Origin: a virus
Taxonomy: Duplodnaviria; Caudoviricetes
IMG/VR virus record: IMGVR_UViG_3300006793_000044
Span: 1 to 53,147 of that record
Reading direction: 5' to 3' (one strand)
Length of the DNA stretch: 53,147 nt
A model generated the notes under the pieces. It made no database searches and was not told the origin of the DNA. It saw only the letters and a list, made by a program, of their open reading frames with translations. The translations under genes and the position numbers were made by a program. The stretch's first letter is position 1; each line of letters opens with the position of its first letter. Shown piece after piece: positions 18,598-47,417 of the stretch.

Positions 18598-20724
18598 TTA
18601 ATTCAAGCTCACTTCCGACATCTCCATCCAGTTTTTTCCAACTTCCATTTCAATATCCAGAGGGATAGGCAACTTGTAGCCGAACCGTTCTTCAATCTCA
18701 TTTCCAATGTCTCGCATGGCCCAGACAGCGCATTCTTTGACCTGTTCAAGTTCCCCGGGGTAGATATCAATCACAATGCTATCATGCACGGTCAGGATCA
18801 GCTTAGAACGCAGATTACGCATTTTAAACGCTCTTAGAGCCCTCACACAGGCCAAGGGGACGATAGTCCCGGTGGCATGGCTTTGGACAGGAAAGTTAAC
18901 GATCTGGGTAGCCCCAGATACACGGCCATTTCTAAATCGTACTGCGTTTGGGAAGCTAAACTCGCGTCCGCATGGAATGCGAACTAAGCCATCCTCGATA
19001 ACGCCATCCATTAGCTTCTTATGCCACTTTTTTAGGCCAGAATAGATGTCGAAGTATGTTTTGAAGTATTCCTGTACGTGGGGGGCTTCTCCAGCCCCCA
19101 TGCCACCGTAGAGTGGCGCAAACGTGTAAGCTTTGGCAGCTTGGCGCATGGATTTAGTAACCTTATCCGCCGCACATTTATTAATAATCATTGCAGTCTG
19201 TGAATGAATGTCTTTGCCACTTTTTACATCGTCTAAGATCTGCTTATCCCCTGACAGGATCCCGGCAACGCGAAATTCTAGCTGGGAGTAATCAATCTCG
19301 CCTAATAGTCCGCCTTCAAAGCGACTAACCACAGCCTTACGCACTGGGAATTTACCGCCCTTGGGCTGGTTTTGGAAGTTGGGCCTACTAGAGCTTAGCC
19401 GACCAGTAGCAGTGGTGGTCTGATTAAAGTTTGCGTGTAGCAGACCGCTTGGCCGAGTGTGATTAGCAATGCCTTTTACAAACGAATTGAGATAAGTATT
19501 CAGAGCGTTTAATCGAGAGTATTTAGTCAGGAAGTTAATCGCCCGAGTGTTACTCTTACGCTCGGCTTGTACCAGCAATCGCTGAATAGTCATTTTGTCA
19601 GCCCGGAACCCGTTAGCTGTAGCATCAGCTGGGCCCTCGGGGATCAGCCCAAGACCCGCCTTTTTGGTGGTTGGTCTGTAGACCGCCCCAGAGCCCTCGC
19701 ACATCTTACACGCTGGCTGTCGCTTGTATGGATCTCCCTTTTTAGTGACTTTGTGCTGCTTGCCTGATCCAGAGCATAGGTCACAACGCTCTGCTATAGT
19801 CCTGTACGCCAGCTGCATGTTGCTTTTAACATGGAAGACCCACTCGCTATCAGACATCCGGGGAGGATATGTGGGACGGCCATCTGGACCTAACCCAATG
19901 TTAAACGCCTTGATAAAAGCTTTCTTATGGTAGTCACTTCTAAACTCGTACCCATAGATCAGGCGGGTCATATCCTGCCCCGAGGAGAGATTGGTGACTG
20001 TATCACCCATCACCTCGATGGTCTCTTTTTCAAGCTCTGTTTGTATTTCTTCTCGCTCATTCTCAAATAAAACACGCACTTGCGAAAGCGAATCCAGGTC
20101 GATGCAAATACCGTTTCTTTCGATCTCAATGAGAAACCAAGTCATTTCGTTCATCAGCTCAAAGGTGGGCCACAGCCCACTATTGTGCTCTTCTTTAAGG
20201 TCTGCAATTTGGGCTAGATATATTTCAGCGCAACTGATTACATCCGCCGCTGCATACTCCAAAACTATTTCTAAGGGCATCCGCTCAAAACCTACGCCCT
20301 GCGCGAACATCTCATCGATGAGTTCAGATTTTTTGCGTGTAACATTACGCCGCTCAGCTGTAGCTTTAAGACTTTTGCTTTGCTGTATGCCTCGGGCAAA
20401 AATGTACTCGCCTATCATTGTGCAATGCAGTTTCGCTGGCAGCACAAAGTCCATCTCAACCAGCCAAGTTACATCAAATTTTGTATTGTGGCACACAACT
20501 AAATCAGCCCTCAGTAAATCGTTTTGAAAAGGCTCTCGGCTATCTGGATGAGGCTGATCATTATGATACCATACGCTGTTTTTAACAGGCCCGAGGGTTT
20601 TACCATCCTCAATCATAAGCCATAACGCCATCACACAAGCATTCTCCTCATGCATGGCAGAAGGGTCCATGATGTCACCTAGAGGCGATACAGTCGTTTC
20701 TAAATCAAGGACACATACAATCAT
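18598..20724 (-). CDS. polA: Family A DNA polymerase with 3'-5' exonuclease and inserted DnaJ-like zinc finger
   Basis: DLET, HNTKFD, TATGRLSS, DYSQLEFR, R..AK...F..LYG, TVHDS; two CXXCXGXG motifs. Confidence 0.95.
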   Translation of the reverse strand: MIVCVLDLETTVSPLGDIMDPSAMHEENACVMALWLMIEDGKTLGPVKNSVWYHNDQPHPDSREPFQNDLLRADLVVCHNTKFDVTWLVEMDFVLPAKLHCTMIGEYIFARGIQQSKSLKATAERRNVTRKKSELIDEMFAQGVGFERMPLEIVLEYAAADVISCAEIYLAQIADLKEEHNSGLWPTFELMNEMTWFLIEIERNGICIDLDSLSQVRVLFENEREEIQTELEKETIEVMGDTVTNLSSGQDMTRLIYGYEFRSDYHKKAFIKAFNIGLGPDGRPTYPPRMSDSEWVFHVKSNMQLAYRTIAERCDLCSGSGKQHKVTKKGDPYKRQPACKMCEGSGAVYRPTTKKAGLGLIPEGPADATANGFRADKMTIQRLLVQAERKSNTRAINFLTKYSRLNALNTYLNSFVKGIANHTRPSGLLHANFNQTTTATGRLSSSRPNFQNQPKGGKFPVRKAVVSRFEGGLLGEIDYSQLEFRVAGILSGDKQILDDVKSGKDIHSQTAMIINKCAADKVTKSMRQAAKAYTFAPLYGGMGAGEAPHVQEYFKTYFDIYSGLKKWHKKLMDGVIEDGLVRIPCGREFSFPNAVRFRNGRVSGATQIVNFPVQSHATGTIVPLACVRALRAFKMRNLRSKLILTVHDSIVIDIYPGELEQVKECAVWAMRDIGNEIEERFGYKLPIPLDIEMEVGKNWMEMSEVSLN

Positions 20725-39985: not shown

Positions 39986-40201
39986 ATGGATAAATCCTTC
40001 TACCGTTCCCTGCTTTTAATGGTGAACGACAAAGAGATGATGAGGATGCTGCAGGAGTACGCAGCTGCGCGTATCTCCCAATACCAGCTGCTTTTAGAAG
40101 TTGAGAAAGACCACTTTAGGGTGCTGGAGATGCAGGGCGCTATAAAAGAGCTTCGCCGAATAAAGACGCTTAGAGATGAATGTATAGCAGGGGCTAAATA
40201 A
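39986..40201 (+). CDS. Conserved post-portal protein
   Basis: QGAI..LR...LRD motif. Confidence 0.7.
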   Translation: MDKSFYRSLLLMVNDKEMMRMLQEYAAARISQYQLLLEVEKDHFRVLEMQGAIKELRRIKTLRDECIAGAK

Positions 40202-43200
40202 TGTCTGCATTAGACAGCGTATTAGGGTTTTTTCGCCAAAACGAGGATGACCTTGAGGCTACCGATCAGCCTGAGTCTCCCTCTGAATTGCAGTCAGATG
40301 GAAGCCTACGTTTTGGTGGTATGGGTGCGCCTTTTGGTTTCCTTACTTCTGAATATGATCCTGTAGCAAGCGCTAATAGTTTAGCTGGCCCTGTCTATAG
40401 CGACAGCATGACGGGTAAAAGTTATGTAGCAGAACCTGATACGGATCAGCGCACAGATAGAGAAATACTTACAGACACTGCTAAGGCAGTGTCGGGCGCA
40501 GTTATAAAAAAAGCTAACGAGCCGTGGGAGCAGCCCCAACTCCCTTCTGCAAAACAAACTTATGAGTTCGCTAAAAAAGCTGCAACAGAAACTGTAGATC
40601 TATTTGATCGATTGGCTTCTGGAGACGGTAGTCTCCTTGAAATTCTTGAGGCAGCTACGGGCGTAGGCTTGGGCGCAAAAGTAGCCCAAAAAGCATTTCC
40701 TGATCCAGAGCTAGATGGCTCTGCTTTTACCACAGGGATGTTTCTTAATGAAAACTCTAAAAACGCCGATACCGCAGCATTAGACAAAGCTAAGGCAGCT
40801 GAATCTAACGGAGTTGATCGGGAAGCAATCTACAAAGATACGGGCTGGTTTAGATTTGCTGATGAGTGGCTGTACGAAATTAGCGACAAAGACACCAACA
40901 TTAAGCTTCTACAAGAGTTTAAAAAACCGCTGGCTACGTTGGAAGAAGTTGAGGTTCCAATTGGTCTGAGTAAAGATGGCCTTGAGCTAATTCGTCTTTC
41001 AGCGCTTGCAGATATCAACGACTTAAATTTAGAGTTTATAAACGGAAATATTACCCAAGACGAATTTCAAGCTGCAGCCAAGCAAGTCAACGCTAAATAT
41101 GCAGCGGAAGCAAACGCTCCTGTAGGCACTGAGACGGTTCTTAAAGAGGTCAACTCAGAGGCCCCGGCCAAAGATAGGGGTATTTTATCTGAGGTACTTG
41201 TTAATACAGACGATCTAGCCGCTGCTTTACCGCCCGGGACAATGGATCAGACCGCCCAAATTAAAGGCAAGAGAACAGGGTATTACGGCGTAAAATACGG
41301 TGGGACACCGCCCAAAGGACTAAGCAAAGTAAATACGTTCCCGGGGGCAATAAGAGAAAAAGGCGAAAAATCTGGCCCAGAGGCGTTGGTAAAGGATCTC
41401 GGTTTTTTCAAAATTGGAAACGCCGATAAAGAACTTTTAGAGCAGCTTAACGCAGGAAAGATAAGTAAGGACCAGTTCTACGCTGATTTAACTTGGGGAA
41501 TTATGCTGCACGAAACCCAGCATTTGGTGCAGGAAGCGCTTAGCTTTAAATCTGGTCGCGGGGGAACAAAAGACGCAGCTAAAGAGGCGAGCAAAGAGCC
41601 AGCAAATAAAGCAGTAAGAGATGCTATGAAAGAGCTGGCCATGCAAGATGGCTGGAAAAAAACTAAAGCTCTACTTAAACAGTACAAGCAAAAAGGTGAC
41701 CAGAGAAATACAGGAAGCGCTTTCGTTTCCATACTCAATTTAAGAAGAAAATTAGACGCGCTTGGGCAAGACCCAAATTTAGACAAGGATCAACTTTTAG
41801 AGGAAGCAAAGAAGGCAAGAACGTCATACATTGAAAAGATCCAAGCTTCTTTCCCTTCTTTATCTGATGTGGATGCTGATGCACTTGCAACGGAGCTGGT
41901 AAATGATTCAGACGTTTTAGACAGCACTGAAGTCTTTGATCGAATAATGGTCTCTAAAGCAGGGCGCTTGTCCGACTCAACAGTAACCCCAGCAGTAGAT
42001 CGAGACAGATACCGTCTTTTTCCAAAATCGGAAAGTAAAAACCCTACAAAAGAAAATATTAGATACGCGGCATACTCTCACATAGCTGGGGAAGCTCTAG
42101 CTCGCTTGGTCACCGCTAGGCGCAATTTAAGTACAGAGCAACTTAGAGACAATTTTCCTTTAAACGACCTCGATGTAGAAGAAGGTATGATGTTCCGCGT
42201 AGGAACAGACGCATACCCCGAAGATTATTCTATCGATACCACCCCGCCCCCACGCCTTGTCGAGACACCAGAGCCCCCTGCCATCAAGCCTTCCTTAGAC
42301 GCAGAACCTGATCCACAGACAATTATAAGTGTCATGGATAAAAATTACTTTGCTACAGAAAATCTAAACGATGCAGATCTACGACTAAAGGATCCTGTTG
42401 GGTATGTTGCAGGGGACATTTTAAGGTTTATTGAATATTTTCCAAATGGAGCAACTCTTAAGGCTATCCAAGGCGAACTGATAGATGGATCTCCAGATCC
42501 CAACAGCAAAGACTTTCTTAATAAAACTCAAAAAAAGGCAAATGAAGCGTTCTATACCGACGAGCGTTTGCAAGAAGCTCTAGTTTATATAGATAATAAT
42601 GGTCTGGCCGCTATTCTCCACAACGGAAATCTTCTTGCCAATAGCACTCAAATTTTACCTACTTGGCAACGTAAAAAACCAGATGGAACAGTGCTTACAA
42701 GAGAAGATTTAAACTATCCCCCGTGGCCACCAGTGGACCCAGAAACACCTCCCACTCCAGTACCGCCAACCGTTAAACCTAACTCGGATTTCTCCTTAGA
42801 GGGTTTAGACAACCAAATTGTTGCCGCTAACTTTATACTTACCGACTTTATAGGGGAATCTACACTAGGAATCTCAACTGAACAGATGGCGCGTAGTTAT
42901 CCTGTAGCGTTCCGTGCAGCTGAAATTATGGATCACATACGCGAATACGACAATCTAGGGGTAAATGATCGGGTAGATCTAAATCAAACACTTAGTGATA
43001 TCGGTTTTGGTTACTGGAAAGATGATAACATATTAGATGAGCTTAACATTGACCCAGTTGAGCTTGATGATAACGCCATCGAGGCCCTTGTTCAGAACGG
43101 TTACATATTTGAGAATCAGATTTCTGGATACACGATAAATAAAATGATAGAGGCCCCGGATGCTGGTTCCGTTGATGATCAGATGGAAGCTGGTGCGATG

Positions 43201-44544
43201 GGCTCTGGCGTCAAAGCACCTACACAGGGCTTTAAGGGCAAGTTAAATTTAGTTCACGGGTTCATACCAGAAAACTACGATATGTTTGAAGGTCAGCAAG
43301 GCGAAGTAGCCCCGCCTAATTTTGTACCAAACGAAAGTTTTACTGGTGAAAGATACGATGCATATGGCGGTGCTTATGGTAGCGAAGGTGTGTACTTAGA
43401 AAACCCTAGTGAGCCTCTTTTCTTTAACACAAATAATATGGACGCTTCTTTCTTTGCTCCTGCTACTGCACAGGTAAGTGCTAACTTTGAAAACGCTTTT
43501 ATACTGGAGCCGCGTACTGTTTCCAGAATGGCTGAAATTACGGGTCTTGACCCAACTGACTCGCTGGCAGGGCCTGATATTGCAAAAATTCTTAAGGCTA
43601 AGGGTTATGACGGGCTTATAGTGCGTGGCTTTGAGCAAAAAAATTATTACGACCCAAATAACGAAACTACAGACGGGTTGCATGATGACCTTACTCAACC
43701 GCAAATAATTCATTTCAAGCCAGAAACTTTAAAAACCACAAAGGTTTTTTCGCAAAGCCTACAGAAAGACCCAAGCCAAGCAGACCAAATTCCTCGTAAC
43801 CCCGAAATCACGCCTTTCTCGGATTCCGTTGATGATCAAATGGAAGCTGGTGCGATGGGCTCTGGTTCCTCTGGTGGAGGGGACAGAATATATCCCCAAG
43901 GGTCTGTTTTTACGTCTAAGACATTTGACGCTATGAATTTCTCTGATGAGCAAGTGGCTGAAATGGCCCGGGTTCATAAAGGAATAAAATCGGATTTTAC
44001 AGATGCTAACCGAAACGCTGAACAAAAAAGAATAGACGAAAAAAGAGACAGGCTTATTGAGCAATACATCACGGCATTTACAAATACATTAGCCAGTAAA
44101 GGCGATAAAGTAGTAAATCTAAAATCTCTTAAATACGCCATGAAAAAAGATAACGCGCTAGGCGGTATTGAGGCTGCAGCAAGGCAAGCAGCCGACACTA
44201 ACGTAATATTAGAACGTATGGCGGGTGATATTATGGCTGAAGAAGCAATGGCTGAAAGATTTGTATCTATGCTCGACGGCCCTCTTTTTGTTGGACCAAA
44301 AATGACTGAGCGGTACAGCAGTTACCTTACTAGTGCCGATATAGACAAAGCTGATCCGTACAACCGCGAAACTGTACGGCGGCAGGTAGAAGGGGATTTT
44401 TCCCTTAATGCAGATCAAGAAGAGTTTTTTGATCGTGTATATGATGAAGGCTACAATAATGAATTACTCGAATGGGCTGCAACAGAACACGCCATTCGTA
44501 GCACGTTAAAGAAAATGCAAATCCCTACTACTGGAGACAATTGA
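40201..44544 (+). CDS. Large polyvalent protein (LPD23-like, zincin metallopeptidase, possible ART-like module)
   Basis: I..DTGWF...W.YEISD; HETQH..Q and Y....GEA.AR; late KGYDGLIV motif. Confidence 0.75.
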   Translation: MSALDSVLGFFRQNEDDLEATDQPESPSELQSDGSLRFGGMGAPFGFLTSEYDPVASANSLAGPVYSDSMTGKSYVAEPDTDQRTDREILTDTAKAVSGAVIKKANEPWEQPQLPSAKQTYEFAKKAATETVDLFDRLASGDGSLLEILEAATGVGLGAKVAQKAFPDPELDGSAFTTGMFLNENSKNADTAALDKAKAAESNGVDREAIYKDTGWFRFADEWLYEISDKDTNIKLLQEFKKPLATLEEVEVPIGLSKDGLELIRLSALADINDLNLEFINGNITQDEFQAAAKQVNAKYAAEANAPVGTETVLKEVNSEAPAKDRGILSEVLVNTDDLAAALPPGTMDQTAQIKGKRTGYYGVKYGGTPPKGLSKVNTFPGAIREKGEKSGPEALVKDLGFFKIGNADKELLEQLNAGKISKDQFYADLTWGIMLHETQHLVQEALSFKSGRGGTKDAAKEASKEPANKAVRDAMKELAMQDGWKKTKALLKQYKQKGDQRNTGSAFVSILNLRRKLDALGQDPNLDKDQLLEEAKKARTSYIEKIQASFPSLSDVDADALATELVNDSDVLDSTEVFDRIMVSKAGRLSDSTVTPAVDRDRYRLFPKSESKNPTKENIRYAAYSHIAGEALARLVTARRNLSTEQLRDNFPLNDLDVEEGMMFRVGTDAYPEDYSIDTTPPPRLVETPEPPAIKPSLDAEPDPQTIISVMDKNYFATENLNDADLRLKDPVGYVAGDILRFIEYFPNGATLKAIQGELIDGSPDPNSKDFLNKTQKKANEAFYTDERLQEALVYIDNNGLAAILHNGNLLANSTQILPTWQRKKPDGTVLTREDLNYPPWPPVDPETPPTPVPPTVKPNSDFSLEGLDNQIVAANFILTDFIGESTLGISTEQMARSYPVAFRAAEIMDHIREYDNLGVNDRVDLNQTLSDIGFGYWKDDNILDELNIDPVELDDNAIEALVQNGYIFENQISGYTINKMIEAPDAGSVDDQMEAGAMGSGVKAPTQGFKGKLNLVHGFIPENYDMFEGQQGEVAPPNFVPNESFTGERYDAYGGAYGSEGVYLENPSEPLFFNTNNMDASFFAPATAQVSANFENAFILEPRTVSRMAEITGLDPTDSLAGPDIAKILKAKGYDGLIVRGFEQKNYYDPNNETTDGLHDDLTQPQIIHFKPETLKTTKVFSQSLQKDPSQADQIPRNPEITPFSDSVDDQMEAGAMGSGSSGGGDRIYPQGSVFTSKTFDAMNFSDEQVAEMARVHKGIKSDFTDANRNAEQKRIDEKRDRLIEQYITAFTNTLASKGDKVVNLKSLKYAMKKDNALGGIEAAARQAADTNVILERMAGDIMAEEAMAERFVSMLDGPLFVGPKMTERYSSYLTSADIDKADPYNRETVRRQVEGDFSLNADQEEFFDRVYDEGYNNELLEWAATEHAIRSTLKKMQIPTTGDN
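43167..43865 (+). repeat. 42 bp in-frame direct repeats (1 mismatch) flanking a 219-codon module
   Basis: Copies at 43167-43208 and 43824-43865 both encode SVDDQMEAGAMGSG. Confidence 0.9.
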
Positions 44545-45272
44545 TGGTCAGGATGGCGCTGGGCGGTCTTGCAACCGCCCGTAGAGGCATAACAACAAAA
44601 GAGGGCGAAGATATGGCCAACAATAAAACACAATTAGATCGTAATAAAGCCGACAAGAATAAAGACGGTAAGCTAAGCAAGTACGAAGAAACTGTAGGCA
44701 TGGCTGTGCAAGACGCAATGGCTGATGACCCAGAGCAAGATGAAAAAGTGAAGATGTATCACGGTGGCATGGCCATGATGGGTGACTATGGCGAAGGCCT
44801 GATGTCCAATTATGATCCTGTATCTGGTAATCCTATCCCGCTTGGCTCAAGTGCAGAAAACGTCCGAGATGATATCGATGCCAAAATCAGCACTGACGAG
44901 TATGTGCTCCCGGCGCATGTCGTAAAATGGCACGGCCTTAAGCACATCCAAATGATGCAATCCGAGGCAGAAATGGGCCTGATGTCTATGGAGATGTCAG
45001 GGCTAATCCAAGAGGTTGAAAGTGACACGCAAGAGGAACCCGATAGCGAAGGCGTTGAGGACGCCGAAGTTTCGGATGCGGGTGGTTCAGAGCAAGAAGA
45101 AAAAGAAACGCTCGAAACACCAGAAGGAAACCAAATTGAGGTGGCAGGAGTAGAAACTACCTTAATAGAACCCGAAGTAGATGAAACCGAAGACTATAAA
45201 GAAAATAAATACGGTAAGTCTACTGGATCGTTCGGCATTAAGAAGAACCCATCAGTGGCCTTCATAATGTAA
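44541..45272 (+). CDS. Conserved head-region protein
   Basis: DPVSGN.IP.GS...VRDDIDAK.S..EYV.PA motif; acidic tail. Confidence 0.7.
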   Translation: MMVRMALGGLATARRGITTKEGEDMANNKTQLDRNKADKNKDGKLSKYEETVGMAVQDAMADDPEQDEKVKMYHGGMAMMGDYGEGLMSNYDPVSGNPIPLGSSAENVRDDIDAKISTDEYVLPAHVVKWHGLKHIQMMQSEAEMGLMSMEMSGLIQEVESDTQEEPDSEGVEDAEVSDAGGSEQEEKETLETPEGNQIEVAGVETTLIEPEVDETEDYKENKYGKSTGSFGIKKNPSVAFIM

Positions 45273-45313
45273 GCAAACGGGCTACCCGCATATGCGGCCC
45301 CCAAAGGAAAATC

Positions 45314-46090
45314 ATGGTTAAATATAGAAGAAATGACATCCAAGAGGATGATGAATTAACGTATGCTGAAGAGATGCAGAAACAGCAAGCGGTAGCGGAA
45401 ACAGGCCCGGAGCCTGTGGACGCAGAAGATGCAGCGTTTAAAAAACGCTATGGAGATTTGCGGCGGCATAGTCACCAATTGCTACAGCAAAAGGACCAAG
45501 AGCTAGCTCAGATGAAAGAGCAGCTGGACACAGCAGCCCGGGGACAAATTAAGTTTCCAAAGACTGATGAAGAGATAGACAACTGGTCAAAGCGCTATCC
45601 AGACGTTGCAAAGATTGTGGACTCAATCGCCCAGAAAAGAGCCAATGAGGCTTTAGAACTAGGCGTAAAACGCATGGAGGGTCTGCGTAAATTCGAAACA
45701 AAACTTGTCGTTAAAGAAGCTGAACAGGTTTTAATGCAAGATCACCCAGACTTTGCTGAGATCCGCCAAGACCCAGCCTTTCATGATTGGGTAGCGCTGC
45801 AGCCTCAAAACATTATCGACAGCCTGTATAAAAACAACACAGATGCTCGAGCGGCATCCCGCGCAATTGATTTGTACAAAGCCGACACTGGCGGACGTAA
45901 GAAAAATAACTCCGCTGCTCGGGCTGTAGGCAAGAGCGTTAATGTCTCGCCCTCGAGTGGAAAAGCACAGTGGAGCGAAAGCCAAATTGATAAGATGTCT
46001 AATGCTGAATTTAATAAGCATGAAGAAGACATCCTTAAAGCAATGCAAACCGGGAATTTTGTCTATGACATGTCCGGGGGCGCTCGATAG
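45314..46090 (+). CDS. Capsid scaffolding protein
   Basis: FKKRYGDLRRH, HPDF...F..W motifs; helical; upstream of capsid gene. Confidence 0.8.
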   Translation: MVKYRRNDIQEDDELTYAEEMQKQQAVAETGPEPVDAEDAAFKKRYGDLRRHSHQLLQQKDQELAQMKEQLDTAARGQIKFPKTDEEIDNWSKRYPDVAKIVDSIAQKRANEALELGVKRMEGLRKFETKLVVKEAEQVLMQDHPDFAEIRQDPAFHDWVALQPQNIIDSLYKNNTDARAASRAIDLYKADTGGRKKNNSAARAVGKSVNVSPSSGKAQWSESQIDKMSNAEFNKHEEDILKAMQTGNFVYDMSGGAR

Positions 46091-46093
46091 GTA

Positions 46094-46122
46094 TTGCTAT
46101 TAATACCAACTTATGGTATAGT
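46094..46122 (+). promoter_or_regulatory. Sigma70 promoter TTGCTA-N17-TATAGT (extended TG)
   Basis: Boxes at 46094-46099 and 46117-46122, ~220 nt upstream of capsid ATG. Confidence 0.65.
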
Positions 46123-46159
46123 AATTCTATCTTATGAGGTAATTATATTACCTTAGTTA

Positions 46160-46280
46160 TAAAACCAGAGCCGCTATTAGCCTACCTCTCGTTTTATCCA
46201 TTCCAAAGAATCAGACACTTAGTCCACCAGTACAACTCTGGCCCGTGTTCTCACGCAACCCAGCCGTAAGTACTGCCACT
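46160..46280 (+). ncRNA. Structured capsid mRNA leader with three CHAC/CC internal loops
   Basis: Stems AGAG/CTCT, AGT..CAGTAC/GTACTG..ACT and CTGG..CGTG/CACG..CCAG, each interrupted by the same loop. Confidence 0.6.
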
Positions 46281-46343
46281 CGATTGTCCTCTTCGGAAAT
46301 TGTTTGGGCGCTTAGCGCCCTGCCATTTCAAAGGAGAATCCAA

Positions 46344-47417
46344 ATGGCATTTAGTTCAGCAACAGGGCACGGTAACCTGCCCAACGGCGCGTTCAGTAGC
46401 GTAATCTACTCGAAAAAAGTCCAGTCTGCCTTCAGAAAAAGTACCGTTGTCGGTGATATCACCAACAGTGATTATTTTGGCGACATCAATGGTCAAGGGG
46501 ACACAGTTCGCATAATAAAAGAGCCTGAAATTTCGGTCTCTGAGTATAAGCGTGGAACCACAGTAAACGCACAAGACCTTGATGACACAGACTTTTCTTT
46601 AGTTATCGACAAAGCAAACTACTATGCTTTCAAGATGGATGACATTGAAGAAAATATGTCACATGTGAATTTTATTCAGCTCGCAACGGATCGTGCTGCT
46701 TATCGTCTGGCCGATAATTATGACCAAGAAGTTCTTGGTTATTTGGCTGGTTATAAGCAAGCAGCTTTGCATGAAGTAGCAAGCGCACTAAATACCACTG
46801 TGAACGGTGATAAAGCTGTCACAACAGCTGGCTCGAATGAGTTGCTTTCAAGTATGCAGCTCAAGAAAAGTGACTTCGGCAACATCACAACAAGCTCCGC
46901 TGGCGATCATTCGATCCCACTGGCAGCTCGGTTGCCCGGTGCTACCGCACTGCCCACAGCTACAGCCTCACCAGCAATGCTTGTCGCTCGCATGAAGCGT
47001 CTTATGGATCAACAGCAAGTCGATACCCAAGGGCGCTGGCTTTGTGTGGACCCGGTGTTTTTAGAAATCCTCGCAGACGAGGACTCACGATTCATGAATG
47101 GGGACTTCGGCGAGAGCGGCGGTCTACGCAATGGTTTGACTATTAAGAATTTCCACGGTTTCCGGGTTTATTCTTCTAGCAACCTTCCAGCAGTAGGTAC
47201 TGGCGCAGGAACATCTGGATCTGCAAACCAAAATACAAACTTCGGAGTGATAGTTGCAGGGCACGATAGTGCTGTAGCAACAGCCGAGCAGCTGTCCAAA
47301 ACGGAAACATACCGTGATCCAGACAGCTTTGCAGATATCGTTAGAGGTATGCATCTCTACGGTAGAAAGATTCTTCGTCCAGAAGCAATCGTAACCGCCA
47401 AATACAACGCAGCATAA
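46344..47417 (+). CDS. Major capsid protein
   Basis: NLPNG.F...IYSKKV, GDTVRIIKEP, FADIVRGMHLYG motifs; ATG 46344 after AAGGAG. Confidence 0.92.
   Translation: MAFSSATGHGNLPNGAFSSVIYSKKVQSAFRKSTVVGDITNSDYFGDINGQGDTVRIIKEPEISVSEYKRGTTVNAQDLDDTDFSLVIDKANYYAFKMDDIEENMSHVNFIQLATDRAAYRLADNYDQEVLGYLAGYKQAALHEVASALNTTVNGDKAVTTAGSNELLSSMQLKKSDFGNITTSSAGDHSIPLAARLPGATALPTATASPAMLVARMKRLMDQQQVDTQGRWLCVDPVFLEILADEDSRFMNGDFGESGGLRNGLTIKNFHGFRVYSSSNLPAVGTGAGTSGSANQNTNFGVIVAGHDSAVATAEQLSKTETYRDPDSFADIVRGMHLYGRKILRPEAIVTAKYNAA

Follow-up and report, generated by a model that had tools for sequence, protein, structure and literature searches.

How a tailed phage keeps the output of its scaffold gene in step with that of its capsid gene, and whether the leaders of the two messages carry anything that could couple them, is the question raised by one locus in a 53,147-nucleotide (nt) stretch of viral DNA, IMG/VR record IMGVR_UViG_3300006793_000044, analysed at its full length and referred to here as the window. 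The window belongs to an HMO-2011-type podophage, with the Roseobacter CRP phages and Puniceispirillum phage HMO-2011 as its closest records. A sequence-only reading had singled out four copies of a small asymmetric internal loop between positions 45279 and 46280, in the leaders of a scaffold-like gene and of the major capsid gene, and had taken them for a selected RNA structural motif. All four are present letter for letter, exactly as first given, on the sense (+) strand of the flanking genes (Table 1). The module is a helix in which 2 nt (CC, or AC in one clade) stand opposite 4 (C/A-N-A-C; 3, CAC, in some copies of hairpin P3). Judged from the comparison with relatives, the four copies are instances of one conserved, selected RNA structure, the loop being kept at four sites and in both orientations while the stems of hairpin A, P1 and P2/P3 co-vary.

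Conservation of the module in the scaffold and capsid leaders

The window by itself was only suggestive, giving moderate support for a motif over chance. A loose scanner (CC opposite CHAC, both stems of at least 3 pairs, span up to 70) found 12 matches on the plus strand and 8 on the minus strand of the window, with 9.3 ± 2.9 per strand in shuffles, and so common a pattern is what a chance likeness of unrelated hairpins would predict. The clustering is rare, however, since five matches within 1002 nt, one of them (45255-45289) an overlapping alternative, were reached by 1 of 200 dinucleotide-preserving shuffles, and at least four by 4 of 200. A further match, at 19351-19392, was discarded as antisense within a minus-strand open reading frame (ORF). 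The decisive evidence on whether the motif is real is its conservation with compensatory changes in relatives, and all four sites are conserved in this way in dozens of relatives and in distant phages; these comparative data refute chance likeness, to which we now give practically no credence.

A capsid-protein search of IMG/VR gave 254 confirmed relatives, and the best 80 of the 254 were examined as loci. The gap between the scaffold-like and capsid genes measures 212-421 nt in 75 of these 80 loci, the remaining 5 being without upstream DNA. There are 42 distinct gaps, the window included, among which five groups can be told apart: G1 (the window with 5 others), G2 (3 sequences), G3 (4), G4 (5) and G5 (24). 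MAFFT aligns across the relatives a promoter, TTGACA-17-TATAAC, at the position equivalent to the capsid promoter of the window, together with the words ..AG-CC-..-CUAC-CU.. of the module. As the promoter of the window is located just 3′ of the scaffold-like gene, the capsid copies lie within a leader of about 215 nt.

Hairpin A, the copy in the scaffold leader, is composed of an outer stem GGG/CCC, [CUAC] opposite [CC], an inner stem CCGC/GCGG and the apical loop AUAU, with 7 pairs in all. It begins 7 nt past the stop codon of the upstream ORF (TAA, 45270-45272) and its 3′ end is 2 nt from the AGGA of the scaffold ribosome-binding site (RBS), the distance to the Shine-Dalgarno sequence (SD) in the relatives being 1-9 nt. 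Each of the 42 distinct sequences 5′ of the scaffold-like gene has the hairpin, in 27 distinct versions. Among these 27, 92.6% of the cells are paired, compared with 16-54% after sliding the partner strand. Pairing in the inner helix is 100%, three of its four pairs change on both sides (C-G/U-A, A-U/G-C, G-C/C-G/A-U), the outer G-C pairs are invariant, and the covariation score of 0.370 was equalled by 0 of 500 shuffles (0.140 ± 0.021). The folding energy of hairpin A alone is ordinary (z = +0.9).

The first copy of the capsid leader is contained in P1, which an automatic rule located in 40 of the 42 gaps; L079 was corrected since the rule had chosen P3, and the P1 variants of L042 and L076 (mismatched closing pair; [CCC] opposite [ACUAC]) were placed by hand. 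MAFFT shifted L059 and L070 by one column in the P1 alignment, and these rows were kept and counted as unpaired. Pairing among the 31 distinct sequences amounts to 88.4% of cells, against 31-46% when slid, with 10 of 11 pairs changing on both sides and a covariation score of 0.771 against 0.228 in shuffles (0 of 500 as high).

The other two copies are nested, P2 enclosing P3. The P2/P3 counts refer to the 23 distinct sequences of G5, because a single MAFFT alignment put the groups in different registers; the 7 rows of G1 and G2 were inspected by eye, and G3 and G4, with 9 sequences, were left out. Within G5, 87.9% of cells are paired (29-51% slid) and two-sided changes occur in 6 of 17 pairs; the covariation score of 0.179 exceeds that of shuffles (0.086), and 0 of 500 attained it. 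The inner helix of P2 co-varies in the relatives (CUG../..CAG versus CUA../..UAG) and differs between groups. The outer stem of P3 is constant within G5 and varies by group, from CUGG/CCAG in the window to GAAG/CUUC in G2, UAGG/CCUA in G5, UAAGA/UCUUA and UGAGA/UCUUA in G4 and UUUGGA/UCUAAA in G3. The loop is carried along by these different stems, and P3 takes such forms as UAGG[CC]..[CAC]CCUA, GAAG[CC]..[CAC]CUUC, UAAGA[CC]..[CCAC]UCUUA and UUUGGA[CC]..[AUAC]UCUAAA. In relatives of G2 and G5 (e.g. L073, 2400-2425) P3 also has an apical extension, absent from the window, whose loop reads ..G(C/G)(C/G)CAA.. or ..UGCAA.. and which may be a tertiary-contact loop.

Covariance analysis of related leaders and an Rfam search were the checks named by the sequence-only reading; the first, run on the IMG/VR relatives, gave compensatory changes at hairpin A, P1 and P2/P3, and in the second no family matched. 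An Rfam 15 search of the whole window at gathering scores returned no match, and at E ≤ 10 it returned seven chance-level matches (snoRNA, S10 leader, RAGATH-7-associated, mcrA), all far below gathering. Nor was a description of the leader found in the literature on HMO-2011 and promoters, as judged by titles and abstracts. The module is a conserved RNA element that has apparently gone undescribed. Covariance models built for hairpin A (R1) and P1 (R2) matched only their own sites in the whole window, the next matches having E ≥ 0.56, so that within this genome the module appears to be limited to the leaders of the scaffold and capsid genes, with the proviso that both models are site-specific (R2 misses even P3) and a degenerate extra copy could escape them.

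Table 1. Features of the scaffold and capsid leaders in the window. Loop strands are in square brackets; MFE, minimum free energy.
Feature	Position	Strand	Sequence or content	Basis or remark
Hairpin A	45279-45302	+	GGG[CUAC]CCGC-AUAU-GCGG[CC]CCC	sequence, relatives
RBS and start codon of scaffold-like gene	45303-45316	+	AAAGGAAAA; ATG at 45314	
Scaffold-like gene	45314-46090	+	258 amino acids (aa)	phrog_13678 (function unknown); helical, charged sequence
Capsid promoter, sigma-70-like	46094-46122	+	TTGCTA-17-TATAGT, TG before the -10 box	predicted start ~46129
P1, long hairpin	46159-46197	+	[CC] 46171-46172 opposite [CUAC] 46182-46185	fold, covariation
P1 core (copy 2 of the sequence-only reading)	46167-46189	+	AGAG[CC]GCU-AUU-AGC[CUAC]CUCU	
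P2a, 5′ strand	46206-46217	+	AAGA and GACA	pairs with 46285-46293; MFE and centroid
P2 (copy 4)	46221-46280	+	AGU[CCAC]CAGUAC...GUACUG[CC]ACU	encloses P3; sequence, MFE/centroid
P3 (copy 3)	46238-46263	+	CUGG[CC]CGUG-UUCU-CACG[CAAC]CCAG	sequence, MFE/centroid
P2a, 3′ strand	46285-46293	+	UGUC-C-UCUU	its UCCU can alternatively pair with the capsid SD
P4 hairpin	46306-46320	+	GGGCGC-UUA-GCGCCC	fold; a different hairpin there in relatives
Local hairpin at capsid RBS	46321-46349	+	UGCCAUUU/AAAUGGCA and GGA/UCC	MFE/centroid prediction; buries capsid SD (46331-46336) and ATG (46344-46346)
Major capsid gene	46344-47417	+		phrog_267 (E 2.4e-61), PF25209
RNA contig X1	46127-46422			metatranscriptome
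RNA contig X2	46058-46380			metatranscriptome
RNA contig X3	46147-46359			metatranscriptome
RNA contig X4	46173-46437			metatranscriptome

Loop letters and more distant phages

The letters of the loop are more constant than those of the stems around it. Positions 3 and 4 of the long strand (A, C) and the second C of the short strand are invariant in 27 of 27 hairpins A and in 31 of 31 P1 sequences. The first letter of the long strand is C in 20 of 27 hairpins A and in 25 of 31 P1 sequences, the rest having A, and it is always the same as the first letter of the short strand: the two read C,C in 20 and A,A in 7 of the hairpins A, and C,C in 23 and A,A in 6 of the P1 sequences, plus the two rows misaligned by MAFFT. 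As each of the switching letters faces a C across the loop, we infer that the loop could be viewed as a two-base bulge flanked by two C.C (or A.C) oppositions.

The two sites also switch together. Among the 23 loci with both sites, C..C is found at both in 17 and A..A at both in 6, with no mixed case. The A..A loci (G3 and G4) make up one capsid clade (support 100/98), so that the switch counts as one evolutionary event, in which four equivalent letters changed at two sites about 900 nt apart. This joint change at hairpin A and P1 favours, at the level of sequence, a shared trans-acting reader of the module.

The sequence-only reading had further called the loop C-loop-like. A published account (PMC9516175) gives the C-loop as an internal loop of asymmetric build, usually in a hairpin stem, in which the longer strand usually opens with a C and two of its bases pair in non-Watson-Crick fashion with the flanking pairs, so that two base triples arise; the example of loop 26 of PSTVd has 3 nt opposite 1 nt. 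The likeness to C-loops (as in rRNA helices, the thrS operator and viroid loop 26) is fair at the sequence level, since the module too is an asymmetric loop in a hairpin, whose longer strand has C first and contains two C and one A. The size is different, 4 opposite 2 here (3 opposite 2 in P3 of most relatives) as opposed to 3 opposite 1, and the short strand is itself conserved here (CC or AC); the likeness is one of sequence, from which the triples are not derivable.

Nine sequenced phages were compared in addition, among them HMO-2011, CRP-1, CRP-3, CRP-207, CRP-235, MW202701 and Rhizobium phage RHph_I3_11. R1 matches directly before the scaffold-like gene in 8 of the 9 (E 2e-8 to 0.09); it misses CRP-1, where the element of hairpin A is visible by eye. 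Five of these phages, HMO-2011, CRP-1, CRP-3, MW202701 (freshwater) and RHph_I3_11 (soil), have two copies stacked in opposite orientation within one hairpin, the double of HMO-2011 reading GG[CUAC]UCACU[CC]CCAUAC..GUGUGG[CUAC]GGUGG[CC]CC. In the capsid leader R2 matches in 6 of the 9, and P2 and P3 are readable in 8 of the 9. RHph_I3_11 (L088, 68 kb; 1703-2716) has a short capsid leader of 153 nt with the strands of the module in a different order, and its stacked double precedes a gene in the scaffold position that is annotated as 'topoisomerase II domain-containing'. In MW202701 (L083; 2090-2890) an HNH endonuclease gene (locus 2202-2771) is inserted within the capsid leader, between the promoter-proximal hairpin and P2/P3, and the 5′ strand of the P2/P3 domain overlaps the end of this gene.

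Folding of the capsid leader

Both the 256-nt intergenic region (z = -5.4) and the leader taken from its predicted start (z = -4.0) are far more stable than shuffles. In its MFE and centroid folds the leader comprises a first hairpin (46135-46155), P1, a continuous P2a/P2/P3 stack of about 24 pairs, P4 and the local hairpin at the capsid RBS. P1 has up to 14 pairs, its inner stems having 2-5. The predicted basal helix P2a is kept in the group of the window, in G2 and in CRP-235, with no compensatory changes.

Such stability would also fit a purely architectural role, in which the module is a twisting or bending, C-loop-like element that protects mRNA ends from RNases or offers a ribosome standby site, with no dedicated protein; the protected ends would be the 5′ end of the abundant capsid mRNA and, at hairpin A, the 3′ end or junction of the upstream message. 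P1 is in most relatives close to where the transcript is predicted to begin, the stability of the leader is out of the ordinary, and the copies stack coaxially (P2a/P2/P3 and the stacked doubles) in the fashion of building blocks. The sequence features also match C-loops as described in published accounts, where these are sites of protein recognition and helix-twisting elements elsewhere (PMC9516175, PMC2952876). A building block, however, need not hold the same letters at four sites or switch them jointly about 900 nt apart, and hairpin A, with 7 pairs and an unremarkable stability, is nevertheless conserved beside the SD. We regard a role of RNA structure alone as possible, though doubtful.

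Near-identical contigs (0-1 differences) cover the capsid leader in four marine metatranscriptome runs (X1-X4), and a fifth contig (45983-46139) spans the capsid promoter. The end of X1 beside the predicted start is a weak hint in favour of that start. Most of the scaffold gene (~45082-45927) is without a contig in the four runs, except for one diverged X3 piece; this gap proves nothing and we make no claim of differential expression. The contigs bear on whether the hairpins are processing sites, at which a host nuclease would cut the asymmetric-loop hairpins and separate the scaffold and capsid messages with stable ends. A T7-type RNase III site consists of about two helical turns of stacked duplex around an internal loop; the asymmetric loop, the intergenic position and the length of the P2a/P2/P3 stack would agree with this, but hairpin A and P1 are too short for RNase III, and the capsid leader has its own conserved promoter, making a cut unnecessary for the capsid message. 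No processing ends or joints in the capsid leader were seen in the contigs of the four runs, of which X1 and X2 span the leader, although the contigs are compatible with partial cleavage. Processing is in our view very unlikely to be the function.

The region of the capsid start codon is involved in alternative pairings. When the first capsid codons are omitted from the fold of the window, the SD pairs with UCCU at 46287-46290, within the 3′ strand of P2a. A promoter rule found a start in 32 of the 42 leaders, and the folding of the SD was tested on these 32. In 23 of them the MFE structure pairs the SD with a CCYCUU word that also makes up the loop and 3′ strand at the base of P2. When this base was made to form, the median cost was 3.2 kcal/mol (range 0-7.5) and the unpaired letters of the SD rose from 0.6 to 2.3 of 4, the 5′ strand of L053 being wrongly chosen in this calculation. 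In the group of the window (6 of 6) the P2a base is already in the MFE structure, and the SD and AUG are buried in the local hairpin instead. The word GCCAUU of that hairpin also occurs in relatives of G2-G4. Neither the SD-hiding nor the P2-base pairing shows compensatory changes. The folding models make a competition between the loop-bearing helix and the masking of the RBS plausible, in a form that is not uniform among the groups.

A promoter-proximal, structured and conserved element with alternative pairings at the SD might also be a riboswitch for a small molecule, or a put-like RNA by which RNA polymerase is modified so as to read through the late operon. Few letters are conserved, however, and they form a small repeated module rather than one elaborate pocket; hairpin A lacks a promoter-proximal position and is much too small to be an aptamer, and no Rfam family matches; an explanation of this type seems to us highly improbable.

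A proposed shared reader and its relation to known systems

The recurrence of identical loop letters in both orientations at four sites or more, their joint switch and the position of hairpin A at the RBS lead us to propose a shared trans-acting reader. That the copies are the recognition sites of one such factor, which would couple the translation of scaffold and capsid, is a reading of the sequences that we hold with about even confidence. The regulatory interpretation, in line with the earlier idea that a phage protein sets the scaffold:capsid stoichiometry, is plausible and is the best hypothesis available to us.

The reader would probably be a phage protein, with free scaffold protein as the most logical candidate; capsid protein as the reader would lead to runaway feedback, and so is a less logical one. 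The product of the 258-aa gene is inferred to be the scaffold from its position 5′ of the capsid gene and its helical, charged sequence. Binding at hairpin A would block ribosome entry at the scaffold SD, whereas binding at the capsid leader (P1 and P2a/P2/P3) would fix a fold that competes with the pairings burying the SD and start codon, and capsid translation would go up. The net effect would be a coupled output of scaffold and capsid and, if the reader is free scaffold, a stabilised scaffold:capsid ratio. The most specific version, in which free scaffold represses its own translation at hairpin A and clamps the loops of the capsid leader so as to open the capsid RBS, coat being made only with scaffold available, is in our estimate rather unlikely. 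If true, the phage would have a checkpoint of assembly encoded in RNA, and scaffold autoregulation in tailed phages would gain its first defined RNA operator. A host factor common to Alphaproteobacteria is also a possible reader, since the isolate hosts named in the phage records are, as we take it, all Alphaproteobacteria.

Several observations weigh against a shared reader that acts through these folds. No recognisable RNA-binding domain appears among the PHROG and Pfam matches of the scaffold-like protein and its neighbour proteins. The letter switch is a single event, and as support for a shared reader it is suggestive rather than statistical. HMO-2011, MW202701 and CRP-207 have a different first hairpin in the capsid leader and are without the loop in P1. 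Within groups the outer stems of P2a and P3 do not vary, which makes them uninformative on covariation, and the base pairing of P2 was not made out in the 9 sequences of G3 and G4, the short strand in G3 being UU by eye. Since the P2a base is already formed in the MFE structure of the window's group, the SD-switch logic of the other group does not transfer cleanly to it. Folding energies leave the non-canonical structure of the loop out of account, and the metatranscriptome contigs show presence, not starts or levels, and may include DNA.

Wyckoff and Casjens reportedly described in 1985 a post-transcriptional autoregulation of the scaffolding gene of phage P22, for which, to our knowledge, no RNA target is known. 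The present locus has the same gene pair in the same order, a P22-like coat protein (annotated as PF11651 in the HMO-2011 record) and the same regulatory problem. In P22, however, gene 8 has only 13 nt before it and overlaps gene 5, and a search with R1 before genes 8 and 5 gave no match, there being no such leader or hairpin; P22 is therefore an analogy of logic and not a homologue.

Phage translational operators are known in the MS2 coat/replicase hairpin, T4 RegA and gp32, and Mu Com/mom, and with Mu Com there is precedent for the opening by a protein of a structure in which an RBS is buried. Such an operator is an RNA element at or overlapping the RBS of the gene it regulates; hairpin A has this position at the scaffold gene, and only there, the capsid copies being 50-170 nt 5′ of the SD. 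Hairpin A is also like these operators in being small, having an unpaired feature and lying at or next to an RBS, but there is no likeness in sequence or structure, and the module here is repeated 4-6 times, in two leaders and both orientations. The T7 gene 10 unit and the T7 RNase III sites combine a capsid promoter and structured leader with hairpins that carry asymmetric internal loops between genes. The locus shares with them a dedicated promoter, a structured leader before the capsid gene and asymmetric-loop intergenic hairpins, whereas its promoter is of host type, its helices are shorter and cleavage is not indicated by the contigs. Like the leaders of ribosomal-protein genes, it would be a cis-acting mRNA structure that an assembly protein in excess could bind, but it does not mimic a known rRNA site and matches no Rfam leader family.

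The HMO-2011-type phages are widespread in marine, freshwater and soil habitats, and the leader is likely to be a very common phage RNA structure that is absent from the RNA family database. How scaffold and coat production are matched has been an open question since the autoregulation of P22, and with a compact, mutable module at both genes it can be put to the test in culture, for example in CRP-235 and its Roseobacter host or in RHph_I3_11 and Rhizobium. As a two-strand unit that is small, functions in both orientations and can be stacked, the module would also be of interest to RNA structural biology and design.

Directly 5′ of the scaffold-like gene (40201-45272) are an ORF of 1447 aa and a very acidic one of 243 aa, both without a PHROG match, the latter also without a Pfam match above the cut-off. 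At the other end of the scaffold-like gene, the -35 box of the capsid promoter is overlapped by an inverted repeat or hairpin, GUAUUG-CUAU-UAAUAC (46092-46107), possibly an operator in the DNA or else a hairpin at the 3′ end of read-through scaffold mRNA. CRP-235 (L082, 2983-3030) has between its scaffold-like gene and capsid promoter a terminator-like hairpin, GGCCAACAGUA...UACUGUUGGCU followed by U-rich letters, which the window is without. An inverted repeat is also present in the relatives around the TTGACA of their capsid promoter.

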